Virus record (IMG/VR): IMGVR_UViG_3300035670_000119
Location: 1 to 64,000 of that record
Reading direction: 5' to 3' (one strand)
Length of the DNA stretch: 64,000 nt
DNA from: a virus
Under the pieces are notes generated by a model. That model searched no databases, was not told the DNA's origin, and saw nothing but the letters and a program-made list of their open reading frames with translations. The position numbers were made by a program, and so were the translations under genes. Each line of letters opens with the position of its first letter. Within the stretch, counting starts at the first letter, position 1. This document shows positions 56,501-64,000 of this stretch, piece by piece.

Positions 56501-57004
56501 TGGAACGGCAACAGCTTGATCTGTAGATGAGGTACTGCGTTGTTTTTCTTCCAGGCGGCGCTGAAGAAATTGTTGGGCACCAGAGTTTACTGTTTCGTTA
56601 CGTACGTCAGCTACAGGGGGCTCCTTGGATTCTTGTACGTCAACTAAGGTTTCCTCTGGAACTTCCGGTACATCTTCCTGTGGACGGTAACGTGCGCCCG
56701 CTGCAGTCTCTAAATCGGTAAAAGTGACGCCTGACTTACCAGGCTGCTTAGGAATATCAGTAACACCACGGTCCTGAAGCAGTTTACGCACCCCATAAGC
56801 ACCTGCACCAAGGCCAGCAGCCGCTAAACCAAGGCCAATGCCCACCGAAACAGGGTCAATGCCCTCAGATTGGGGTGCTTTTAGCTGATTACGGCGAAAT
56901 TCCAGAACTTCTGGGGCCATCTGCGCCCTTTCTTCCGGATCTTCGGGTACTGGAACCCCGGTTGCACGGCTATAAGCGTAAAAATCAGCGGGTGCCAGTG
57001 CCAT
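53573..57004 (-). CDS. large hypothetical protein (first gene of late operon)
   Basis: 1143 aa; hydrophobic Gly-rich helix near the N-terminus. Confidence 0.7.
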   Translation of the reverse strand: MALAPADFYAYSRATGVPVPEDPEERAQMAPEVLEFRRNQLKAPQSEGIDPVSVGIGLGLAAAGLGAGAYGVRKLLQDRGVTDIPKQPGKSGVTFTDLETAAGARYRPQEDVPEVPEETLVDVQESKEPPVADVRNETVNSGAQQFLQRRLEEKQRSTSSTDQAVAVPQEERIYAPSSVLPAARRPLREEKILDRLASEQALLEQPIFSKRAWNEGTSLSPSRQMPEGIVNYPSSLKNVYEGEEVNVLGPSSPMRETFSAFAQIDPEMVDRQIQNVLNDTELSPGQKEGAIYNLQRLKQASEGVRGEAGTTALALSRKGKLPYTELLDEPISGIRGEMREVVNPAYAEAMKNYWERRSAELPHTITDYEKRKAAGLLNYQLPEAQRDSRNRAQTFGGWDKATSEALQEIYESEVGDIPQYITELRPARGEEARARLGEQEEYTGPLQKYFEKERPSGSTQPRDRAYLPVYQPEVYPAMRKINGQMVGFPSYNLSSLTAESRQSPIRYKGAETGNIIDTVPMAVDALTENEIAPGVIGQFKTTEIVHAPLQRVELVTDPDSGKTKPRLVNFNIRLDAEVSPYAAALVGVPPLTSIQNAVQSIKDIHGDDYETINRKVNVLLKNTVGDTPIMTQRPFDQYDESRRQFINMLSGASYETQQKGFLVGVNGEKLPYTGPQTKGKSAVQNEQNRRTNIIEAQRQLSNTIESSLKQQGLDPEEISKRTQTLVSQYLPGFDESGVITSAKPQISSPERQLSGQPLPDIMQKSATGENVRSAYYARLEPSMGGAVSSQLRTLLKSGAQVSTDPPGTPGAKVTYKMGDKTVSYPRNQLIETLKRENQDALNIAELTGITLKGEGEVVSGPYQTLSSRQTGQPNVSPTQRPAKPGFYYNEFGELIQEPITSSFTGPARFAAGPASDVLSGDYPQGGSRLSVRTSPSAELQEYNRYRLAAAAEATPGGRMVRGAQQLGQGIGAIPAGLGALTESQVLERYGASGSQLQQIGNQLMAQAAYKRGQQPGATQVGVKTGERNIPMGTAGERTYGPIPPPQQGPAVSTLGTSANREIAGYERRVTGPQLSIPGMLTERPASGYTPNSALDFYEKALAREAQQLASQSTPQRMVRRQGKMVPMAQANRPVQRNVFFPRG

Positions 57005-57125
57005 TTGTTTATTGTTGCGCGTTAAAGTTGTCCTTCTTTGTATTTTAAAGGAAAGAATTTGTAAAACACTACGTAAGTTAGACTGTTAACAAGAAAAACA
57101 CAGCGACAAGCAACGTAAAAAAGTC

Positions 57126-57335
57126 ATGAACCCTAAAACGCAGATGGAAAGGGGAATTGCACTCAAGGCAATTGCCAGCAAAGCACGAGAACTGCAAGAT
57201 AAAGGAGTCAGTGGCTTAGCTGTAGATCAATTTTTAATTGGTGCCAGGCAAAAATTGGCGGAAGAGCGCCCTGATGTAGAAGCACACGCTAAGGCCGCGG
57301 CTGCATCTAACAAATGGATGGCACAAAACCGTTAA
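57126..57335 (+). CDS. hypothetical protein
   Basis: 69 aa; TAGACT box at 57079. Confidence 0.6.
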   Translation: MNPKTQMERGIALKAIASKARELQDKGVSGLAVDQFLIGARQKLAEERPDVEAHAKAAAASNKWMAQNR

Positions 57336-57367
57336 GAAGAGTAAAAATATTTTTTAATATTTTTTAC

Positions 57368-57391
57368 CGGGGGCTAAAACCCCCGTTTTTT
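57368..57391 (+). terminator. intrinsic terminator
   Basis: CGGGGG-ctaaaa-CCCCCG followed by a T run. Confidence 0.7.
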
Positions 57392-57604
57392 GTGTAATTT
57401 TTTGGTGTAAGCAGTTGTTACCCATACATTTTTTGCAAAAATTGGCCCTATAGGGGTCCAAAAAGGATAAAAAATTATCTGACGCTTCTTCAACACCATG
57501 CGCGTAGTGAATTGCGTATAGAAAAAAAGAAAGGTGTGGTGGGTTAAATAATTTATCGGGGGCTGCGCATCCGTGTAACGCAGGTATTCCATCGCTTTAG
57601 ATCA

Positions 57605-57916
57605 ATGCAGTTGACGAAGGAAGAGCAGAAGGTTGTCGAGTTTGACGACCGTTGTCAGATGGTGGCAAGTTATCTATGGGAAGGTAAGTCTGTCACGATG
57701 ACTGCGAAGCAGCTTGAGTGGTATGACGTGACGCCGCACCAAGTGATAGCGGAGCTGAGCGGTTGGCTTCGTTCGGAAGAGCAAGAAGCCTGCTGGGAAG
57801 CGGAGCATTTGTATCGTGGCAGCCGCCGTGAGCGTACACATGTTGTCTATTGCACCAAGCAAGGTGACAAGTATGTGTTCAAGGCGAAGGTTGTCAAGGT
57901 AGCTAACTACGTTTGA
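57605..57916 (+). CDS. hypothetical early protein
   Basis: 103-aa ORF. Confidence 0.6.
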   Translation: MQLTKEEQKVVEFDDRCQMVASYLWEGKSVTMTAKQLEWYDVTPHQVIAELSGWLRSEEQEACWEAEHLYRGSRRERTHVVYCTKQGDKYVFKAKVVKVANYV

Positions 57917-57928
57917 CGGTTAACTCTT

Positions 57929-57956
57929 CCCCTGGTGAGAGCCAGGGGTTTATTTA
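57929..57956 (+). terminator. intrinsic terminator
   Basis: CCCCTGGT-gaga-GCCAGGGG followed by TTTATTT. Confidence 0.7.
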
Positions 57957-58049
57957 GCCCTCAAAGCTATGCTTCTAGACGCATAAACGCATTCTGTACA
58001 GTCTGTACATCGCGCGCGCGTACTTTTGGGCTACATCTGCTGCCTGTTC

Positions 58050-58126
58050 AGGCAGGACAGTCGCGCCGCAAGGGATCTCAGCGATTAATCGTCAAGCTGG
58101 ACGTTAAACGTAGCCTTGTCCTACCT
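58050..58126 (+). ncRNA. multibranch leader RNA containing a UAAAC pseudoknot
   Basis: Outer stem 58050-58060/58116-58126; TCGC/GCGA arm with GCAA loop; CGTC-aagctg-GACG-ttaaac-gTAGC. Confidence 0.45.
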
Positions 58127-58137
58127 AATTCAACACC

Positions 58138-58299
58138 ATGACTTACACCGTTATCATCAAGCATCACGACGTATTCTCTCAGTCTTATCTCCAGGGCTGT
58201 GAGCAATCGTTTGACACTGAGCAGCAAGCTCAGGATTACATTCAAACATTTGAGGATTGGGAACAAGATCTTCTGGAGATTGATTTCAATCCTTTCTGA
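58138..58299 (+). CDS. hypothetical early protein (53 aa)
   Basis: Hand-translated MTYTVIIKHHDVFSQSYLQG...FNPF. Confidence 0.55.
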   Translation: MTYTVIIKHHDVFSQSYLQGCEQSFDTEQQAQDYIQTFEDWEQDLLEIDFNPF

Positions 58300-58339
58300 G
58301 TAACAGGCGTGATGCCGGGGGATCGAATCCCCCACTCAG
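58296..58339 (+). ncRNA. T-loop-containing three-way mini-RNA
   Basis: CTGAGT/ACTCAG stem; GGC-gtgat-GCC; GGGGG-atcgaat-CCCCC. Confidence 0.45.
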
Positions 58340-58380
58340 TATTGCCACAATTCAGTGGCATTTACCTACACCACACGACC

Positions 58381-58569
58381 GTGATCAAAGCACAGAACGT
58401 CTACGCACTCATCATCATCCAGGCATTTGCCATGGGTATTATCGCTGGTCCAGTTGCTGGATACTTCATTGATAAGGCAACTGCCAAGCAATGCATTACT
58501 CACGACTGGCCGAAGGAGGCCGATCAAATCCACCGTGATTGGTGCGTCACTAACGGCTACAAGATCTAA
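58381..58569 (+). CDS. small membrane protein
   Basis: TM helix followed by QCITHDWP...WC..NGY. Confidence 0.6.
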   Translation: MIKAQNVYALIIIQAFAMGIIAGPVAGYFIDKATAKQCITHDWPKEADQIHRDWCVTNGYKI

Positions 58570-58641
58570 GACTCCTGCTCTGGGGACTACGGTCCCCTCA
58601 ACAGGACTCAACATCCTGTATCCCACTGCTCATTCAACACC

Positions 58642-58851
58642 ATGTCAATGATTAAGAACTGCACTGTCGTACTTTCCAACGGCAACGTCGTTGGGATGCA
58701 TGCAAACGAAGCAGATGCAGAAATGCAAGCAATGGAGCTGGCATACGAATGGCGCAGACAATCTGACTGTGGCTCCGAGGTACCAGCACCTAAGCTTGCC
58801 GTCCTGTCATTCAATGACTGGATGCAACTGCAGAAAGAGTTTGCATTCTGA
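58642..58851 (+). CDS. hypothetical early protein
   Basis: A/C-rich leader, 69 aa. Confidence 0.6.
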   Translation: MSMIKNCTVVLSNGNVVGMHANEADAEMQAMELAYEWRRQSDCGSEVPAPKLAVLSFNDWMQLQKEFAF

Positions 58852-58945
58852 TTCCTGCACTTAACCCTTCCATTGTGGTACATATGTACTACGACGGTAG
58901 GTTTTCTGCAGGCAATCAAGTCTGCTATCCAACTCAACTCAGCTC

Positions 58946-59134
58946 ATGACTGCACTACACATCCGCAAGAACATTGCTGCTGCACTGTTTAACACAGCGG
59001 CAGCTATTGACAATGCCAAGCTTCCTACCAAGGAAGATATCGGTACTAAGGTGAATGAGTATCGGCTGCGTGCAGCGGCACTCATGATGCCGAACGATAT
59101 GGCATTCGTCATCACTCCTAAGCAAGGCAACTGA
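58946..59134 (+). CDS. hypothetical early protein
   Basis: A/C-rich leader, 62 aa. Confidence 0.6.
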   Translation: MTALHIRKNIAAALFNTAAAIDNAKLPTKEDIGTKVNEYRLRAAALMMPNDMAFVITPKQGN

Positions 59135-59136
59135 TC

Positions 59137-59340
59137 ATGCACCGTAATTACTTTTCTGACTCCTGTGTCGCTCTTATTCTTGGCTCTGGCTTGGGTTTAC
59201 TGTTATCTGTTGGAGCACAGAAGCTTCTCAACAGACACTACCAAGCAACGTGCCATGACAGACCAGGACACAATCTGATCTACGTCCAAGGATTCCTTGG
59301 CGATACGTACTACTGCATCAACAGTAAGTATATCAACTGA
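59137..59340 (+). CDS. small membrane protein
   Basis: TM helix plus GDTYYCI. Confidence 0.6.
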   Translation: MHRNYFSDSCVALILGSGLGLLLSVGAQKLLNRHYQATCHDRPGHNLIYVQGFLGDTYYCINSKYIN

Positions 59341-59432
59341 TCTCTGCACTTTCCCATCATATCCATTGGATGTGATGGGTTCCTGCAGGGCTTAGCTCTG
59401 CATACACCACACGACACCACCAGGACTCAACC

Positions 59433-59678
59433 ATGACTCCTAAAGCTGTTGAATATCTCCTGACCCAAGACGCTCGTCTGCTAGCCAGGAGAGATGCCCC
59501 TTGCATCGACCAAGAACTTGAGGCGCAGCGCCAAGCTGCTCTTGAATTGTTCTTCGAGTGGCAAGACGGTATGCGTCAATTCCAAGACCTTGTTCCCTTC
59601 GTTGCCATCGTGCAGCGTAAGGTAGATCTCAACCGGGATCTGCTTCGTTGGGAACGCAGGCAACTGGAACAAGATTGA
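59433..59678 (+). CDS. hypothetical early protein
   Basis: 81 aa. Confidence 0.6.
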   Translation: MTPKAVEYLLTQDARLLARRDAPCIDQELEAQRQAALELFFEWQDGMRQFQDLVPFVAIVQRKVDLNRDLLRWERRQLEQD

Positions 59679-59752
59679 CGACTACACTGAGGGGCTTCGG
59701 CCCTTCTCTGTAGTCTTCATCAAGAAGGCTACGTACCACTGCACACAACACT

Positions 59753-60016
59753 ATGGCAGTTTCAATTGACCATCACGACATCACAGCAGCCCTTAATAAA
59801 TTCAACCTTGAGGTAACTGATTATTATCTTGAGTTTGCTGATGATGTCATCTATATGTACTGGGTAGCATGCCCGGCAGATATAGAACACTACATCAAAG
59901 AAGACACTGGTTGCCTTGCGATTCAGATTAAAGGCAAGTGGTTCTATCTGGATGAATCCCGACCGGACACTGAGCGTCCGTTTGTTAACTGTCGTTATAT
60001 CTTGGAGACAATCTGA
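59753..60016 (+). CDS. hypothetical early protein
   Basis: 87 aa. Confidence 0.6.
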   Translation: MAVSIDHHDITAALNKFNLEVTDYYLEFADDVIYMYWVACPADIEHYIKEDTGCLAIQIKGKWFYLDESRPDTERPFVNCRYILETI

Positions 60017-60222
60017 TGAAGACGATTTATTCAATGGGGAGAGGCAAATACATCCACCTCGATTCTTACGGTGAGTCTCATGGGACTCGCCGTTGGTCAG
60101 TTGGTATTGCCCTCTTCTCCATCGTCATCGCCGCCATCACTGCCACCGCACTGGTGGACGTTGACATCACTGATCCTTCACTGAAACAACACCATGTCAT
60201 TCACAATCGCATTGGTTACTGA
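60016..60222 (+). CDS. small membrane protein
   Basis: Coupled (TGATG); TM helix. Confidence 0.55.
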   Translation: MKTIYSMGRGKYIHLDSYGESHGTRRWSVGIALFSIVIAAITATALVDVDITDPSLKQHHVIHNRIGY

Positions 60223-60418
60223 CCGGAGTGGGCGTTATGCTCACGTCTGGGGAGAACCAAGGAGCTGGAATCAATTCGTTGAACAGCTCGAAGATGCTGG
60301 CTGCGAAGTGATTGAAAACCAGACCGAAGATTGGGAAGGGTCTACCAGGGATGAAGTCGCTGAAGACTGCTTGACAGTTCATCAGCTACTGCACGACACT
60401 GACTTCATTCCCCACTAA
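60194..60418 (+). CDS. hypothetical early protein
   Basis: 74 aa, acidic. Confidence 0.6.
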   Translation: MSFTIALVTDRSGRYAHVWGEPRSWNQFVEQLEDAGCEVIENQTEDWEGSTRDEVAEDCLTVHQLLHDTDFIPH

Positions 60419-60420
60419 AC

Positions 60421-60475
60421 ACCTGGGCATCCACAATTGAGAACTCTTCTCAATAACGTGGTGTAAGTCCCAGGT
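60421..60475 (+). ncRNA. CA/GUAAGU internal-loop RNA element, copy 1
   Basis: ACCTGGG-CA-[stem-loop]-GTAAGT-CCCAGGT. Confidence 0.65.
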
Positions 60476-60503
60476 CCAACCGTTCACTTACTCAACTTAC
60501 ACC

Positions 60504-60686
60504 ATGAGAGACCCTAACTTCATTGATGAACAACGTAACGCTGACTTGCTTGATACCATGGCTGATGTGGCATATCAACAAGAGCAAGCCATGCGTGAAG
60601 CGTTTGAAGAACATCAAGAACAATGGATGATGCGTGAATTGAATCTCAACTTATTTGAACAGGAGACCTACGATGACCAAGCCTAA
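60504..60686 (+). CDS. hypothetical early protein
   Basis: 60 aa. Confidence 0.6.
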   Translation: MRDPNFIDEQRNADLLDTMADVAYQQEQAMREAFEEHQEQWMMRELNLNLFEQETYDDQA

Positions 60687-61086
60687 GTACACACTGCGTC
60701 AAGCATGGGATGACGGTGACATTATCGTCATCCTGATCGCAATCATTTCAATCATCATCACTGAATTCGCATCATGTCTTACATCTCAGAACTCAAGAAG
60801 TTCTACCCCAAGACCTACAAAGTCCGCTTTGCAATCAACGCCTACAACACACACAAGTATTTCGAACACGAAAATCCAACGGTCATCACCGTGCACGAAA
60901 CCTGCCTCCGTTATGGAGGACCCGAAGAAGGAGGCTGGTGGTTCCAGCAAGGTAACCCGGTCCTCAGCCACTGCATCTTCTCCAAGAAGCAAGCGATCCA
61001 AACCTACGTCAAGTACTTCGAAGAGTACAAGATCGAAGGGCAGCCGTCTCTTGGAGATACAACAACTAGCTCCAACATCGAGCTAA
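60673..61086 (+). CDS. membrane-anchored protein with tail overlapping next gene
   Basis: AGGAG upstream; TM IIVILIAIISIII, then S/T/K-rich tail. Confidence 0.45.
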   Translation: MTKPKYTLRQAWDDGDIIVILIAIISIIITEFASCLTSQNSRSSTPRPTKSALQSTPTTHTSISNTKIQRSSPCTKPASVMEDPKKEAGGSSKVTRSSATASSPRSKRSKPTSSTSKSTRSKGSRLLEIQQLAPTSS

Positions 61087-61142
61087 GTTTTTCCAACAGG
61101 TATGCAGAGGTGTACCCTAAGACGCGTCCCCATTACTGCTGA
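60774..61142 (+). CDS. hypothetical early protein
   Basis: YGGPEEGGWW...PHYC motif. Confidence 0.7.
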   Translation: MSYISELKKFYPKTYKVRFAINAYNTHKYFEHENPTVITVHETCLRYGGPEEGGWWFQQGNPVLSHCIFSKKQAIQTYVKYFEEYKIEGQPSLGDTTTSSNIELSFSNRYAEVYPKTRPHYC

Positions 61143-61147
61143 GATTC

Positions 61148-61390
61148 ATGCTTGCCACTGCAGTACCAGCACTCAGTATCAATCAACGTAACCTCTATGC
61201 TTACTTCTTGAACCACAAGAAGAAGTATGGGAACACACCATGCTTTGTACCAAGGCTTCCGTCACAGGCCTCAAGGCTTGAGCAATATCTTCAAGCCTTG
61301 GTAAGGCTAGAGGAATACGGATTGATACGTGTAGACAGAAGCGTTGATAACTACACAGGCTGGATGATGCTAGAACCTAAGGCCACATAA
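61148..61390 (+). CDS. winged-helix-like hypothetical protein
   Basis: LSINQRNLY...ALVRLEEYGLIRV. Confidence 0.55.
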   Translation: MLATAVPALSINQRNLYAYFLNHKKKYGNTPCFVPRLPSQASRLEQYLQALVRLEEYGLIRVDRSVDNYTGWMMLEPKAT

Positions 61391-61467
61391 CGTAATAACA
61401 GTGCCGTAGTATTGGATGGCATGTAAGAATTGCCAATACATGCCAATACTTCAGTTATAGTCTCAAT

Positions 61468-61508
61468 CCTGGGCAGCACTGACGTAAGTACGGTGCGTAA
61501 GTCCCAGG
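61468..61508 (+). ncRNA. CA/GUAAGU internal-loop RNA element, copy 2
   Basis: CCTGGG-CA-GCACTG...CGGTGC-GTAAGT-CCCAGG. Confidence 0.65.
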
Positions 61509-61511
61509 CTT

Positions 61512-61739
61512 TTATCCGACTGTATTACGTACATCAGGTGTAAACCTTTGCATCTGATCTAACAACCTAAGCTCTGCTTGTTTGTTTTGTATCGGAATGC
61601 TTTCATTTCTTATAACAGATGTTAAGAAGTCCATTACTTTATCTTGAGGTGGCATAGAACCATGTGCCTTCATGTATTCTTGTTGCCACCCTTGAAGGAA
61701 TGGACTATTGGCCATTGCATATCTACCAGCTAATAACAT
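61512..61739 (-). CDS. hypothetical protein, inverted relative to its cluster
   Basis: 75-aa ORF filling the gap between two RNA elements. Confidence 0.55.
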   Translation of the reverse strand: MLLAGRYAMANSPFLQGWQQEYMKAHGSMPPQDKVMDFLTSVIRNESIPIQNKQAELRLLDQMQRFTPDVRNTVG

Positions 61740-61766
61740 GGACCTGAGTATGTCCTTAAACTACTC
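61740..61766 (+). ncRNA. UAAAC H-type pseudoknot
   Basis: GGAC-ctGAGTAt-GTCC-ttaaac-TACTC. Confidence 0.55.
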
Positions 61767-61807
61767 AGTCCATCATACTCATCATCAACCTCAACTCCAC
61801 ATCAACC

Positions 61808-62083
61808 ATGACCTACCCCGAAATCGACTGGAAGAAGAACGAGTACAAGCAATTGGAAGAAGCTTTGGACATACTCAAAGCTGTCATCGAACGTGAATCA
61901 AAGCGTCATCAAATGGATGAGCACTTAGTTCCAGGAGATAATGATATTGTCCAAGAAGCAATCGGTTTGCTTGAAGAGATCATTGACTATGACCCGACAC
62001 CTAACGAGCCTGGTGAACCTCCCATGACAATGGACGAAATGCACAGTGCTGCATGGAAAGAACACCAGGAGATGCACCGGTAA
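61808..62083 (+). CDS. hypothetical early protein
   Basis: 91 aa; DYDPTP...EPPMT. Confidence 0.65.
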   Translation: MTYPEIDWKKNEYKQLEEALDILKAVIERESKRHQMDEHLVPGDNDIVQEAIGLLEEIIDYDPTPNEPGEPPMTMDEMHSAAWKEHQEMHR

Positions 62084-62234
62084 CAGCCAACTAGGGGGGA
62101 CTAGTACATAAGTACTTCCCCCCACACCCCCCGACAGAGTACCAGGGAATCCTTGGATTTATATAGGACATACTTATGTTCCATTCCCTTGACTCCCTGG
62201 TAGACTGTCCTTGTTAATCAACTCATCTCAACCC

Positions 62235-62447
62235 ATGACTACTCCCAACACTCCACGTATACCTGACTCTCTTGACATGCAAAGACTTCAAGCTATGCAA
62301 CTTGTTGCAAAGATGAAGGAATCAGCAGAGAGAAATGGTATTGGATTCATTGGTGGATTCATTGCTCCGAATGGAGAGAAGTTTGTCATGACCAACATGA
62401 CAGACGAAGATGACATCAATGCACTCATGCCGGAGGATCTTAAGTGA
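62235..62447 (+). CDS. hypothetical early protein
   Basis: MTTPNTP...; TAGACT box at about 62200. Confidence 0.6.
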   Translation: MTTPNTPRIPDSLDMQRLQAMQLVAKMKESAERNGIGFIGGFIAPNGEKFVMTNMTDEDDINALMPEDLK

Positions 62448-62779
62448 ATCAATCTCATCCCGTTATTCCAACCGAGTACCTGCTTGATGCTTGGCATCAG
62501 CAACATCAACGATACAGAAAGAGCTTCAAAGAAATTCTTATTGAAGCTGCCCAATGGGGAGCTGATACAGAATTAGAAGAATGTTGTAAGCTATTCGAAT
62601 CTAATTCTGTATGTGGCACCAAGTTTCAGCGGAGATCTTCTGTTCGAGATCTACGTGAAAAGCGTAGACCTTCACCCAAGCAAAAGACATTGACAGTGTC
62701 AATCACTGGTACTGAAGATGAACTTGAACAACTCATTCGCAAACTCAAACATGAACAACAAATCTCGATTGAACTTTGA
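62444..62779 (+). CDS. cyanophage hypothetical protein (AAQWGAD-type)
   Basis: AAQWGADTELEECC. Confidence 0.65.
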   Translation: MNQSHPVIPTEYLLDAWHQQHQRYRKSFKEILIEAAQWGADTELEECCKLFESNSVCGTKFQRRSSVRDLREKRRPSPKQKTLTVSITGTEDELEQLIRKLKHEQQISIEL

Positions 62780-62948
62780 CAAAACTATCGCAGGATTCAA
62801 CATTACCGAGCGCGGTGTGCGCTCGTACAGTAAATCAATTAAGCTTGGTCCATTCCAAGTAACACTTAACGCACGTGAGTCTGGCTTACGTGGTACCATT
62901 GGTATCCCTGGCACAGGCGTTTCAATTCCAAACATTAAGCTAATCTAA
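62751..62948 (+). CDS. DUF4236-like protein
   Basis: SKSIKLGP...TIGIPGTGVS. Confidence 0.6.
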   Translation: MNNKSRLNFDKTIAGFNITERGVRSYSKSIKLGPFQVTLNARESGLRGTIGIPGTGVSIPNIKLI

Positions 62949-63012
62949 AGATCTGGGCATCCGAAAGCAACGCCGCGTCCAGGACACGCCGTAGGTGTAA
63001 GTCCCAGATCTT
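62948..63012 (+). ncRNA. CA/GUAAGU internal-loop RNA element, copy 3
   Basis: AAGATCTGGG-CA-TCC...GGT-GTAAGT-CCCAGATCTT. Confidence 0.65.
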
Positions 63013-63034
63013 GTCCACTAACTCAACTCAACTC

Positions 63035-63220
63035 ATGTCTGCTTACGTCGAAAACCTCACCTTGTTTGATCGCATCAATCTTGCTGCCTGCGCACAGCGC
63101 AGAGCAACAGAAAATGTGTTGGATTCAACACGATTCAATGGCGAGTTTGACACAGCACGTCTGTGGATGAAGTATCGCCTTGTCAAGTACAGCAACTATT
63201 CATTTATCGAGGGCAACTGA
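63035..63220 (+). CDS. hypothetical early protein
   Basis: ACTCA-repeat leader; MSAYVENL. Confidence 0.6.
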   Translation: MSAYVENLTLFDRINLAACAQRRATENVLDSTRFNGEFDTARLWMKYRLVKYSNYSFIEGN

Positions 63221-63471
63221 TGACAGTCTTAGCAATCGAAAACACTTCATTCACTGACACTCATGTCACAGTTACAGCAGTTGTTGACGAGATGCGCCTG
63301 CTCTATCGCGGAAGTCGTCTCGACCCTGAAGAGTGGGCTCCTGCATTGTGTCAAGCAACTATTGAGTTGGATCCAGAGGAACAAATCCCTCTTGATGAAG
63401 ATGGCTTCTGTGCCTATCTTGATCACCTCGATCCTCAATGGCAAGTACTAGATCCGGAGGACATCGGATGA
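63220..63471 (+). CDS. hypothetical early protein
   Basis: Coupled; DPEEWAPALC. Confidence 0.65.
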   Translation: MTVLAIENTSFTDTHVTVTAVVDEMRLLYRGSRLDPEEWAPALCQATIELDPEEQIPLDEDGFCAYLDHLDPQWQVLDPEDIG

Positions 63472-63653
63472 TTGGCTTCTCAATTGAATTCAAACGTTGG
63501 TACTTTGTACTACGTGGTCCTAAGGGTCGTGTGTACTTGGCAACTGGCTTTGCTAAACGCATGCCAGTCATAACGCCGATTGGCACCTATGACATGGAAC
63601 AGTACATCGAAGAGACGTCACTGTTCTTAGATATACATCGGTACGAAGACTGA
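63468..63653 (+). CDS. hypothetical early protein
   Basis: GGAGG Shine-Dalgarno; MIGFSIEF. Confidence 0.6.
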   Translation: MIGFSIEFKRWYFVLRGPKGRVYLATGFAKRMPVITPIGTYDMEQYIEETSLFLDIHRYED

Positions 63654-63657
63654 TCAC

Positions 63658-63685
63658 ACGTCCTGGACATGACGTTAAACTGTCT
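63658..63685 (+). ncRNA. UAAAC H-type pseudoknot
   Basis: ACGTC-ctGGACAt-GACGT-taaac-TGTCT. Confidence 0.55.
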
Positions 63686-63708
63686 ATTTCATTTACTCAT
63701 TTAACCCA

Positions 63709-64000
63709 ATGGAAATCAATTCTCCAACGCCACCTTTAGATCTTGTTAATGATTGGATGACGCATTGGTATGACGACAATCAAACCGATGATACCCAAGA
63801 AATGTACATTGCAACTAAGGCTGCAATGTGGGGTGCTATCTGGGGTGCTACTAATGCGTTAGAAACAGCTATCAAAGACACATCTCCTGTTCACTGGCGT
63901 GTAGCCGGTGGTGCAGAAGATGGTCAGCAAATAGTACGTGTTATTGATCTAATGGAATGGCTTGCACAATTCCGTAAAGAATATGAGGAGAAGATCAATG
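63709..64000 (+). CDS. hypothetical protein (partial; resembles 62444..62779)
   Basis: Hand-translated MEINSPTPPLDLVNDW...YIATKAAMWGA. Confidence 0.6.
   Translation, partial: MEINSPTPPLDLVNDWMTHWYDDNQTDDTQEMYIATKAAMWGAIWGATNALETAIKDTSPVHWRVAGGAEDGQQIVRVIDLMEWLAQFRKEYEEKIN

Follow-up and report, generated by a model that had tools for sequence, protein, structure and literature searches.

We analysed a window of 64,000 bases (bases 1–64000 of the 85,905-base IMG/VR virus record IMGVR_UViG_3300035670_000119) and found that the small + strand genes between 57917 and 63708 are punctuated by compact RNA folds of four families, here called A, B, C and D. An element of this kind typically lies a few nucleotides (nt) past a stop codon and about 21–31 nt ahead of the next ATG, and a G-poor leader follows it. 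The analysis shows the folds with their covariation, strand and fixed position as well as the exchange of one for another, and a post-transcriptional role is the most economical reading. As a tentative explanation, we propose by analogy that the folds may act as protein-free roadblocks, which shield the downstream cistron from 5′-end-dependent decay by RNase J or RNase E. The carrier is a lake cyanophage of the type of Synechococcus phage S-EIVl. This phage, with about 71% identity across 14% of 57500–64000, was the one isolated relative that we found, and its genes are all annotated as hypothetical.

Folded elements in the intergenic gaps

We called the genes ourselves and computed folds for those gaps in 57917–63708 that measure 30 nt or more (n = 12). 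A preliminary description of the region had placed a folded element in most gaps, and this was confirmed: the minimum free energy (MFE) z-score, calculated against 200 dinucleotide shuffles, was −2.9 or lower in eight of the 12 gaps. Of 42 control windows of 85 nt taken from coding DNA of this region (mean z −1.28), five were as low. The four exceptions were 57917–58137 (z = −1.44), 60687–60773 (−1.41), 62949–63034 (−1.22) and 63654–63708 (0.01); the last of these gaps holds a pseudoknot, a fold that is invisible to MFE folding. The copy numbers given earlier were also correct, with three copies of A, three of B, three and a looser fourth of C, and one of D (Table 1). The leaders are poor in G, as had been described: the G fraction was 0.124 in the 30 nt preceding 21 start codons and 0.222 region-wide, and where a start has a gap before it, these 30 nt contain 0–5 G.

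All four families were found again in relatives, with few copies on any but the gene strand. Strand counts were made over the record, the S-EIVl stretch (L001) and 31 relatives' loci, and for the A descriptor over the record and the 31 loci. The looser A descriptor matched the gene strand 80 times and the opposite strand 0 times. The corresponding counts were 112 and 4 for the B descriptor (stem S1, linker and at least four pairs of stem S2) and 45 and 8 for the C descriptor. It had been suggested that the copies covary under selection on RNA structure, and the covariation, the occurrence of G·U and not A·C pairs, the strand specificity and the fixed placement relative to stops and starts all bear this out.

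Family A is the GGCA/GUAAGUCC hairpin, with the consensus nnCUGGG-CA-[hairpin of 8–38 nt]-GUAAGU-CCCAGnn, in which a basal stem (P1) and an inner hairpin (P2) flank the internal loop. We built a covariance model, R1, for this family. It gave 76 matches at E ≤ 0.01 in the window, S-EIVl and the 31 relatives' loci, and all 76 were on the gene strand. The stop codon is mostly 1–10 nt upstream of the element and the ATG mostly 26–31 nt after P1; many copies are followed by GCUUU. The exact A pattern matched at least 120 viral-contig stretches. Across these contigs, which span a GC content of 0.35–0.61 and at least 74 distinct downstream contexts, the loop and P1 are nearly invariant and P2 is free to vary, and an identical P2 type precedes different genes. 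The short forms have 5–7 plus 3 base pairs (bp), about 10–11 bp in total.

Pairing inside family A was examined in 123 unique copies. Inner pair 2 was paired in 118 of them and inner pair 3 in 102, and the first inner pair was U·U in 66 and mostly standard in the remainder. The pair flanking the fixed stem was paired in 93 copies, with the partner slid by one in 44. P2 contained 18 G·U pairs versus 1 A·C. In the A alignment, which was fitted to R1 and is hence biased towards structure, 86.1% of cells were paired compared with 73.5% in shuffles (0 of 500 shuffles were as high), slid controls gave 23–56%, and double changes were found in 7 of 10 pairs.

R1 gave no match at E ≤ 0.001 in 151 cyanobacterial genomes under strict filters. 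Among the matches listed for the A pattern in cellular genomes, no more than 18 of 120 had the inner pairs, as expected by chance, and these look like coding DNA. When 50,697 phage records were searched by blastn with a short form of 40 nt, only chance matches of 17 nt came up. An A-like match on the minus strand of the window at 1706–1746 (19 bits) sits in protein-like sequence and was taken as chance. Two readings of A were dropped: a hairpin promoter of a phage RNA polymerase, given that P2 varies from 8 to 38 nt, and a ribozyme, given that the minimal form has only 28 nt. A search with PF00940 (RNA polymerase) found no match and its control was silent as well; a 1143-aa protein is without any Pfam or PHROG family.

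A transfer RNA (tRNA) gene with anticodon UAA lies beyond the window at 66294–66369 of the record and is kept in 30 of 32 loci. Where an A-type CUUGG/CCAAG hairpin stands upstream of it (11 cases), the tRNA begins 3–5 nt past the hairpin in all. This tRNA has 76 nt and a short variable arm, and forms of 85–86 nt occur in several relatives.

Family B is an H-type pseudoknot with the consensus C-GUC-[C-UGGRCA-U]-GAC-G-UUAAAC-UGYCCA. The record has seven good + strand copies, three of them in the window. A fixed B pattern matched at least 116 viral-contig stretches with a GC content of 0.33–0.63, and S2 had at least five pairs in 105 of 123 unique copies. We aligned 146 distinct copies, which were picked on S1 and stem type only; about half of them came from a pattern that fixes two loop letters and two S2 letters. 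The alignment was 94.9% paired compared with 83.7% in shuffles, and none of 500 shuffles reached that value. S2, whose pairing was not a selection rule, was 91.6% paired with double changes in four of its six pairs, and slid controls gave 20–48%. The pair 12–32 was G-C in 72 copies, A-U in 27 and G-U in 26; 13–31 was A-U in 72 and G-C in 64; 14–30 was G-C in 106, A-U in 22, U-A in 5 and C-G in 3; and 15–29 was C-G in 90, U-G in 40 and U-A in 11.

The pairing of S1 was a selection rule. Its first pair varies among C-G, G-C, A-U and U-A, G7-C20 and C9-G18 are present in 146 of 146 copies, and U8-A19 in 131 copies is replaced by A-U in 15. The loop has 8 nt, C-U-NNNN-A-(U/C/A), with the first C and the second-to-last A invariant and U at base 2 in at least 90%. 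The linker U22–C27 and U28 are invariant (146/146), and so is the A16-U28 pair; the base preceding the linker is G in 120 of 146 copies. Of 85 copies that were placed relative to genes, 81 have a downstream start, and in 51 of these the ATG is 25–28 nt past the linker. An upstream stop lies within 40 nt in 65 copies, 5 nt before S1 in 34 of them, and the remaining 20 have no upstream open reading frame (ORF) within that distance. Read-through or frameshift products at B were considered and dropped, as just 14 of the 65 junctions are in frame and open. A riboswitch-like reading was dropped too: B has no Rfam match, and its loops L1 and L2 are 1 nt each.

In cyanobacterial genomes, a B-type pattern was found in 6 of 401, below the reversed control, and two of the six were true look-alikes. 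A B-like element occurs in one locus (L529, G146:C16:642-3662, minus strand), between a stop codon and a downstream gene that has a Shine-Dalgarno (SD) sequence; the surroundings are a phage-like stretch binned with a 3.0-Mb cyanobacterial genome. Another locus (L531, G087:C1:1239835-1242855, minus strand), from a 2.6-Mb cyanobacterial genome, is a CRISPR array in which a 34-nt spacer, flanked by 36-nt repeats, holds the complete B core of stem, 8-nt loop and linker. This spacer is a host link to cyanobacteria and a sign of immunity that targets the conserved B module.

Family C consists of CU(G/A)CA, a C or U, a variable GC-rich hairpin, pyrimidines and UG(C/U)AG. A UGA stop lies 3–4 nt upstream. 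The base is kept while the top hairpin varies, with at least five kinds of apical hairpin, and the GC-rich apical hairpin is followed by UUUUC or UUUC. Long forms reach about 20 or more positions, which is the RNase III length. Pattern matches beyond the lineage were mostly chance: 27 of 114 had a stable inner fold, 5 of these (three loci, L436, L450 and L458) looked real, and no clear C was found there. We also observed that the 3′ basal strand of C could pair with an upstream 5′ strand or with a near-identical downstream copy (58854–59402 and relatives), and this three-segment arrangement is reminiscent of an attenuator.

Family D is a tRNA-like minihelix, with acceptor-like and T-arm-like helices only. 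The UGA stop of the upstream gene falls in the 5′ strand of its closing stem. D is nearly invariant, as a 22-nt core was found exactly in 42 viral-contig stretches, and the closing stem covaries, with four stem versions among 37 unique viral-contig copies. It follows different upstream genes. D was not recognised as a tRNA gene: ARAGORN called 0 genes in the window, and the tRNA model RF00005 gave no match at E ≤ 10.

Table 1. Positions of the folded elements and of other features near them. R1 scores are from the family A covariance model.
Feature	Position	Strand	Description
Intrinsic terminator	57929–57956	+	Canonical, 8-bp GC stem and T-run; after gene 57605–57916; outside families A–D; from the terminator scan
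Family B, variant copy	58090–58121	+	S1 CGUC/GACG, 6-nt loop, UUAAAC linker, weaker S2; variant also in L005, L009, L016, L020, L027
Family D	58296–58339	+	6-bp closing stem CUGAGU/ACUCAG, 3-bp mini-hairpin, 5-bp stem with 7-nt AUCGAAU loop
Small hairpin after D	58344–58359	+	GCCAC..GUGGC; sequence varies among copies, pairing kept
Family C, looser copy	58574–58618	+	CCUG..CAGG around GC-rich hairpin (58574–58605), then overlapping CAGGA..UCCUG hairpin; gap z −2.92
Family C, copy 1	58854–58912	+	Basal CUGCA/UGCAG, pyrimidine mismatches, long apical hairpin; z −3.67
Family C, copy 2	59344–59388	+	3′ strand UGCAGGG alternatively pairs with downstream CUCUGCA (59384–59402); z −4.70
Family C, copy 3	59682–59713	+	CUACA/UGUAG base, UUCG-capped top; z −3.72
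Family A, copy 1 (A1)	60422–60474	+	P1 CCUGGG/CCCAGG, internal loop CA/GUAAGU, long P2; R1 40.4 bits
G-poor leader (example)	60475–60503	+	Between A1 and ATG 60504; 2 G in the 30 nt before the ATG
Family A, copy 2 (A2)	61468–61508	+	Followed by UUUU; convergent with minus-strand ORF 61512–61739; R1 38.5 bits
Family B, copy 2 (B2)	61740–61768	+	S1 GGAC/GUCC, S2 CUGAGUA/UACUCAG; linker UUAAAC then UAC, as in coremin
Two very stable hairpins	62094–62209	+	Outside A–D; gap z −5.29; inverted ACAUAAGUAC / ACAUACUUAUGU pair
Family A, copy 3	62951–63009	+	37-nt P2 insert; R1 42.5 bits
Family B, copy 3	63659–63686	+	CGUC-CUGGACAU-GACG-UUAAAC-UGUC
Two further family A copies	~66251–66290 and 66672–66698		Same record, beyond the window; CUUGG/CCAAG and CUAGG/CCUAG stems

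Exchange of elements at orthologous genes

We grouped 231 element–gene pairs by the N-terminus of the downstream protein, which gave 31 groups with at least two members. Different families occupied one slot in 5 of the 31 ortholog groups. The gene family of the window gene at 60504 has A in seven loci and B in six, the gene at 63035 has A in eight loci and B in one, and the gene at 61808 has B in this record and A in five relatives. One further group has D in one locus and A in three, and another is mixed for A and B. The distance from the element to the ATG was 21–31 nt in most grouped members. Because different folds fill the same slot, the role is likely to be generic and based on structure, which argues against operators for proteins specific to one fold; the exchange of A, B and D at orthologous genes suggests one common structure-based role.

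The preliminary description had also suggested that the elements serve as joints for the shuffling of gene cassettes. This idea fits the differing modules on orthologous genes as well as the ends of synteny blocks, which fall at elements in comparisons with eight relatives (59713, three times; 60421, three; 61512, five; 58336, three; 58114, four; 62951, two). In one relative (L017), an A2-type hairpin directly precedes the 61808-type gene. Compared with L017, about 270 nt are inserted here between A2 and gene 61808, and they comprise a minus-strand ORF of 75 codons (61512–61739) and B2. Since the ORF and B2 are both missing from L017, the ORF looks like an inserted cassette, and since the insert carries its own B copy beside gene 61808, this gene kept a fold on its 5′ side. 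The ORF lies within the + strand array and is flanked by A2 and B2.

Known RNAs and candidate functions

None of the four families was matched in Rfam. A cmscan search with Rfam 15 gave 0 gathering-score matches in the window, and at E ≤ 10 there was nothing relevant in 57000–64000 or 63630–63730, also for RF03003 (GP20-b); in the relative L003, only the true tRNA was matched at E ≤ 5. String and topic searches of the literature found no paper that describes these folds in phages. The sole relevant paper found with the motif strings concerned coremin, an exoribonuclease-resistant RNA (xrRNA) of plant viruses, and among the matches listed for xrRNA and bacteriophage none joined both subjects. 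Intercistronic stabilising or processing structures are already known in kind, and B adds a new form to a fold that has been described before.

Coremin is carried by beny-, cucumo- and other eukaryotic RNA viruses. Dilweg, Olsthoorn and colleagues have studied it, and the excerpts of their papers used here (PMC6546385, PMC10520033, PMC10321173) describe a GUC/GAC hairpin of 3–4 bp with a YGAD loop (YGNNAD for six-base loops), a conserved spacer GUUAAACUAC (G12–C21) in which A16–A20 are essential, and a second hairpin (hp2) of any sequence. According to these excerpts, coremin stalls Xrn1 one nt ahead of its first hairpin; it also slows ribosomes during scanning and promotes −1 frameshifting. 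They state that hp2 is needed for Xrn1 resistance, and that ordinary frameshifting pseudoknots are not resistant. In the Watson-Crick type (xrRNA-WCC), loop bases 6–8 pair with spacer bases 18–20 according to compensatory mutants, A7-U19 being proved by mutagenesis, and one octaloop works outside the loop consensus.

Family B resembles coremin in several respects. Its stem has the G-C, U-A and C-G pairs followed by G-UUAAAC-U, its loop begins with a pyrimidine and has A second to last, and it is small, standalone and also intergenic. As in xrRNA-WCC, the loop pairs with bases after the linker, A-U first, so that A16-U28 corresponds to A7-U19. However, the six middle bases of the 8-nt B loop form the 6-bp S2, where coremin has 0–3 pairs, and the carrier is a DNA phage of bacteria that have RNase J and RNase E and not Xrn1. 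S2 is followed by a G-poor unfolded leader where coremin has hp2, base 2 of the loop is U and not G and so falls outside YGAD and YGNNAD, and position 20, an essential A in coremin, is mostly G in B; A is found there in a minority of copies, including the one at 61740–61768. As B shares the core but has a 6-bp S2, no hp2, U at loop base 2 and G at position 20, we filed it as coremin-like and not as a proven member.

Coremin, which the preliminary description did not name, appears to be a closer analogy for B than the two phage systems cited there, the early RNase III sites of T7 and the put antiterminators of HK022. Both are internal-loop hairpins like A, and both occur in early phage transcripts. 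The T7 analogy was not supported, as the short A forms have about 10–11 bp only and an RNase III gene was not found in the record; the RNase III family does match the Synechococcus elongatus control genome. Going by RNase III as known from E. coli, these forms would be too short. The put RNAs occur once behind each early promoter. Here, in contrast, there are many copies at every kind of gene junction with no tie to promoters, and the put analogy was not supported either.

Other systems were compared as well. Repetitive extragenic palindromic (REP) stabilisers and the 3′ inverted repeats of chloroplasts are folded elements credited with setting the stability of a neighbouring segment. The intercistronic folds of the cip-cel operon of Clostridium cellulolyticum, a case of selective RNA processing and stabilisation by stem-loops, are thought to do the same, according to excerpts of the report (PMC4423207), and in this they are like the elements proposed here. 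However, all of these are ordinary hairpins without conserved loops, whereas we found four folds with invariant loop letters that are common to many phages and stand at a fixed distance from the next start. In T4-type phages, repeated promoter–stem-loop (PeSL) motifs between small early genes mark the borders of shuffled cassettes, as far as the excerpts of two reports go (PMC2839356, PMC4122927), which is similar to the present array. PeSL elements join an early promoter to a stem-loop terminator in these excerpts, whereas here sigma-70-like sites are depleted and RNA folds are conserved; among the array elements, no sigma-70 early promoter joined to a stem-loop was found.

Our preferred but tentative reading is that the folds are protein-free roadblocks to 5′-end-dependent decay. 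A module would consist of one compact fold from families A–D, a G-poor leader that is unstructured and has no SD sequence, and an ATG. A 5′-monophosphate end would arise upstream in the polycistronic message, and RNase J (acting 5′ to 3′) or RNase E entering from this end would be halted on reaching the fold. The downstream cistron and its short leader would then survive and stay translatable, and the upstream fragment, which would end in the same fold, would be degraded more slowly by 3′ exonucleases. The reading draws on the strand bias, the spacing to the downstream start, the exchange of folds, the insertion seen against L017, the likeness of B to coremin, and the scarcity of U-tracts and lack of terminator calls among the elements. 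Here we infer both the transcription of the folds within the messenger RNA and the blocking of nucleases. It has been said that xrRNAs stop any 5′-3′ exonuclease, RNase J1 included (excerpts of PMC8374639), and that cyanobacteria possess essential RNase E and RNase J (excerpts of PMC8682795); the RNase J domain family matches the S. elongatus control genome. A wider statement, that cyanophages and, by GC content, probably other bacterial tailed phages too would use at least three interchangeable folds against decay by RNase J or RNase E, with B as the counterpart of the coremin xrRNA, is on present evidence rather doubtful.

Several observations weigh against the roadblock proposal. A and C are plain hairpins on a basal stem, without the ring or knot topology that would resist 5′ exonucleases, and in B the lack of hp2, the U at loop base 2 and the G at position 20 all depart from coremin. 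No gene lies downstream of A2, and the UUUU behind it looks more like a role at a 3′ end. The position of the stop codon is likewise narrowly set, 5 nt ahead of B in the 34 copies mentioned above, so that the folds could just as well serve the upstream cistron. In 19 loci (L062, L072, L101 and 16 others), A lies between a structural gene and a major capsid gene that shares 64% identity with its counterpart in Synechococcus phage S-CBWM1. In these S-CBWM1-like contigs, the leader after A is 47–51 nt long and has an SD sequence, and the fixed spacing is therefore not universal. S-CBWM1 itself gave no R1 match at E ≤ 1.

If blocking of RNase J or RNase E proves true, the elements would be the first exoribonuclease-resistant RNAs of DNA phages. 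This would connect the mRNA biology of phages with a mechanism so far known from eukaryotic RNA viruses alone. Under the wider statement above, xrRNAs would extend beyond those viruses and be a device of viruses in general, having arisen in or spread to more than one domain. Blocking would also explain how each cistron is expressed in phages with tightly packed small genes that lack SD sequences. The modules of 28–60 nt are portable and could stabilise messages in cyanobacteria. The four unnamed RNA families are ready for Rfam-style curation, with A and B each present in at least 116 viral-contig stretches, and their conserved letters are targets of host immunity, as one CRISPR spacer matches B.

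The folds may instead belong to the upstream cistron, as weak U-tract-poor terminators or as blocks to 3′ exonucleases in the manner of chloroplast 3′ inverted repeats or REP stabilisers. Their starts at 1–10 nt (A), 5 nt (B, 34 of 65 copies) and 3–4 nt (C) past the stop agree with this, and so do the convergent junction and UUUU of A2, the GCUUU behind many A copies and the UUUUC or UUUC behind the apical hairpin of C. We nevertheless consider it unlikely. A scan of 56900–64000 called none of A–D as a terminator. On the gene strand of 57917–63708 it found the unrelated 57929–57948, which alone has the canonical consensus and follows a gene, three sites in coding DNA, and one site within the unclassified hairpins (62142–62156). 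Apart from A2, U-tracts are missing from the elements. No U-run follows B or D, the downstream start is a closer companion of B than the upstream stop is, and B2 has no adjacent upstream gene on its strand. Promoters for restart are depleted as well, since 4 sigma-70-like sites were found in 56900–64000 versus 10.7 ± 3.9 in shuffles, and 1 of the 4 is on the + strand. Mitochondrial transcripts are punctuated by tRNAs, and tRNA-like RNAs are substrates of RNase P. The elements could likewise be endonuclease punctuation: RNase P or RNase Z would cut D, and RNase III or RNase E would cut A and C, which would also resemble the T7 RNase III sites. D does place an acceptor-like stem, which covaries, on a T-arm-like hairpin between genes, a real tRNA lies in the same array 3–5 nt after an A-type hairpin (in the record and in relatives with both), and long C forms attain the length for RNase III. 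However, D lacks the D arm, the anticodon arm and the CCA end, it was called neither by ARAGORN nor by the Rfam tRNA model, its loop begins with A where tRNAs have U, and with a 5′ cut the upstream gene would lose its stop codon. By the E. coli enzyme, short A forms would be below what RNase III needs, and a pseudoknot is not a usual substrate. Punctuation is thus quite unlikely.

A translational role, which we hold improbable, would place the fold at the mRNA entrance of the terminating ribosome, where it would block sliding or re-initiation and keep upstream RNA from pairing with the leader, and each start without SD sequence would then be used independently. The fixed distance to the ATG, the G-poor leaders and the effects of coremin on ribosomes in the excerpts cited above are in agreement with such insulators or regulators. 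Moreover, the 5-nt spacing after the stop is the usual spacing of recoding pseudoknots. However, the few B junctions that are in frame and open disfavour read-through or fusion, no slippery sequences were seen before the B stops inspected, and 20 of 85 copies have no upstream ORF in reach. The folds could also be operators, at which phage or host RNA-binding proteins time early expression and the invariant loops are the recognition sites; the near-invariance of the A loop and P1 beside a variable P2 fits a recognised surface. This is hardly probable either, as different folds substitute before the same gene, A occurs in unrelated phage lineages with few genes in common, the tertiary contacts described in the coremin excerpts account for the conserved linker of B, and no shared protein partner was found or successfully sought. 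The possibility that the elements are selfish or recombinational DNA (REP-like, like miniature inverted-repeat transposable elements, or mere joints of cassette exchange) with no RNA function is very remote. It would suit the synteny-block ends, the same A P2 type before different genes and D behind different upstream genes. However, block ends at gene borders are expected anyway, a pseudoknot of the H type whose linker is rich in A is meaningful only at the RNA level, the elements are always oriented with the gene strand, and their spacing from the ATG varies by just a few nt.

Genomic setting

Small genes occupy the + strand from 57605 through the end of the record. Downstream of the small-gene array are replication genes, namely those of a 575-aa PcfJ-like protein, ThyX, a family A DNA polymerase and a single-stranded DNA-binding protein (SSB), and the structural genes are upstream of the array on the opposite strand. 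Among the sequencing runs listed for the stretch (20 runs from 14 studies), there was no RNA run. Two long + strand ORFs, 60655–61086 and 60774–61142, overlap in different frames, and the first has a short hydrophobic segment at its start (ATG at 60673).

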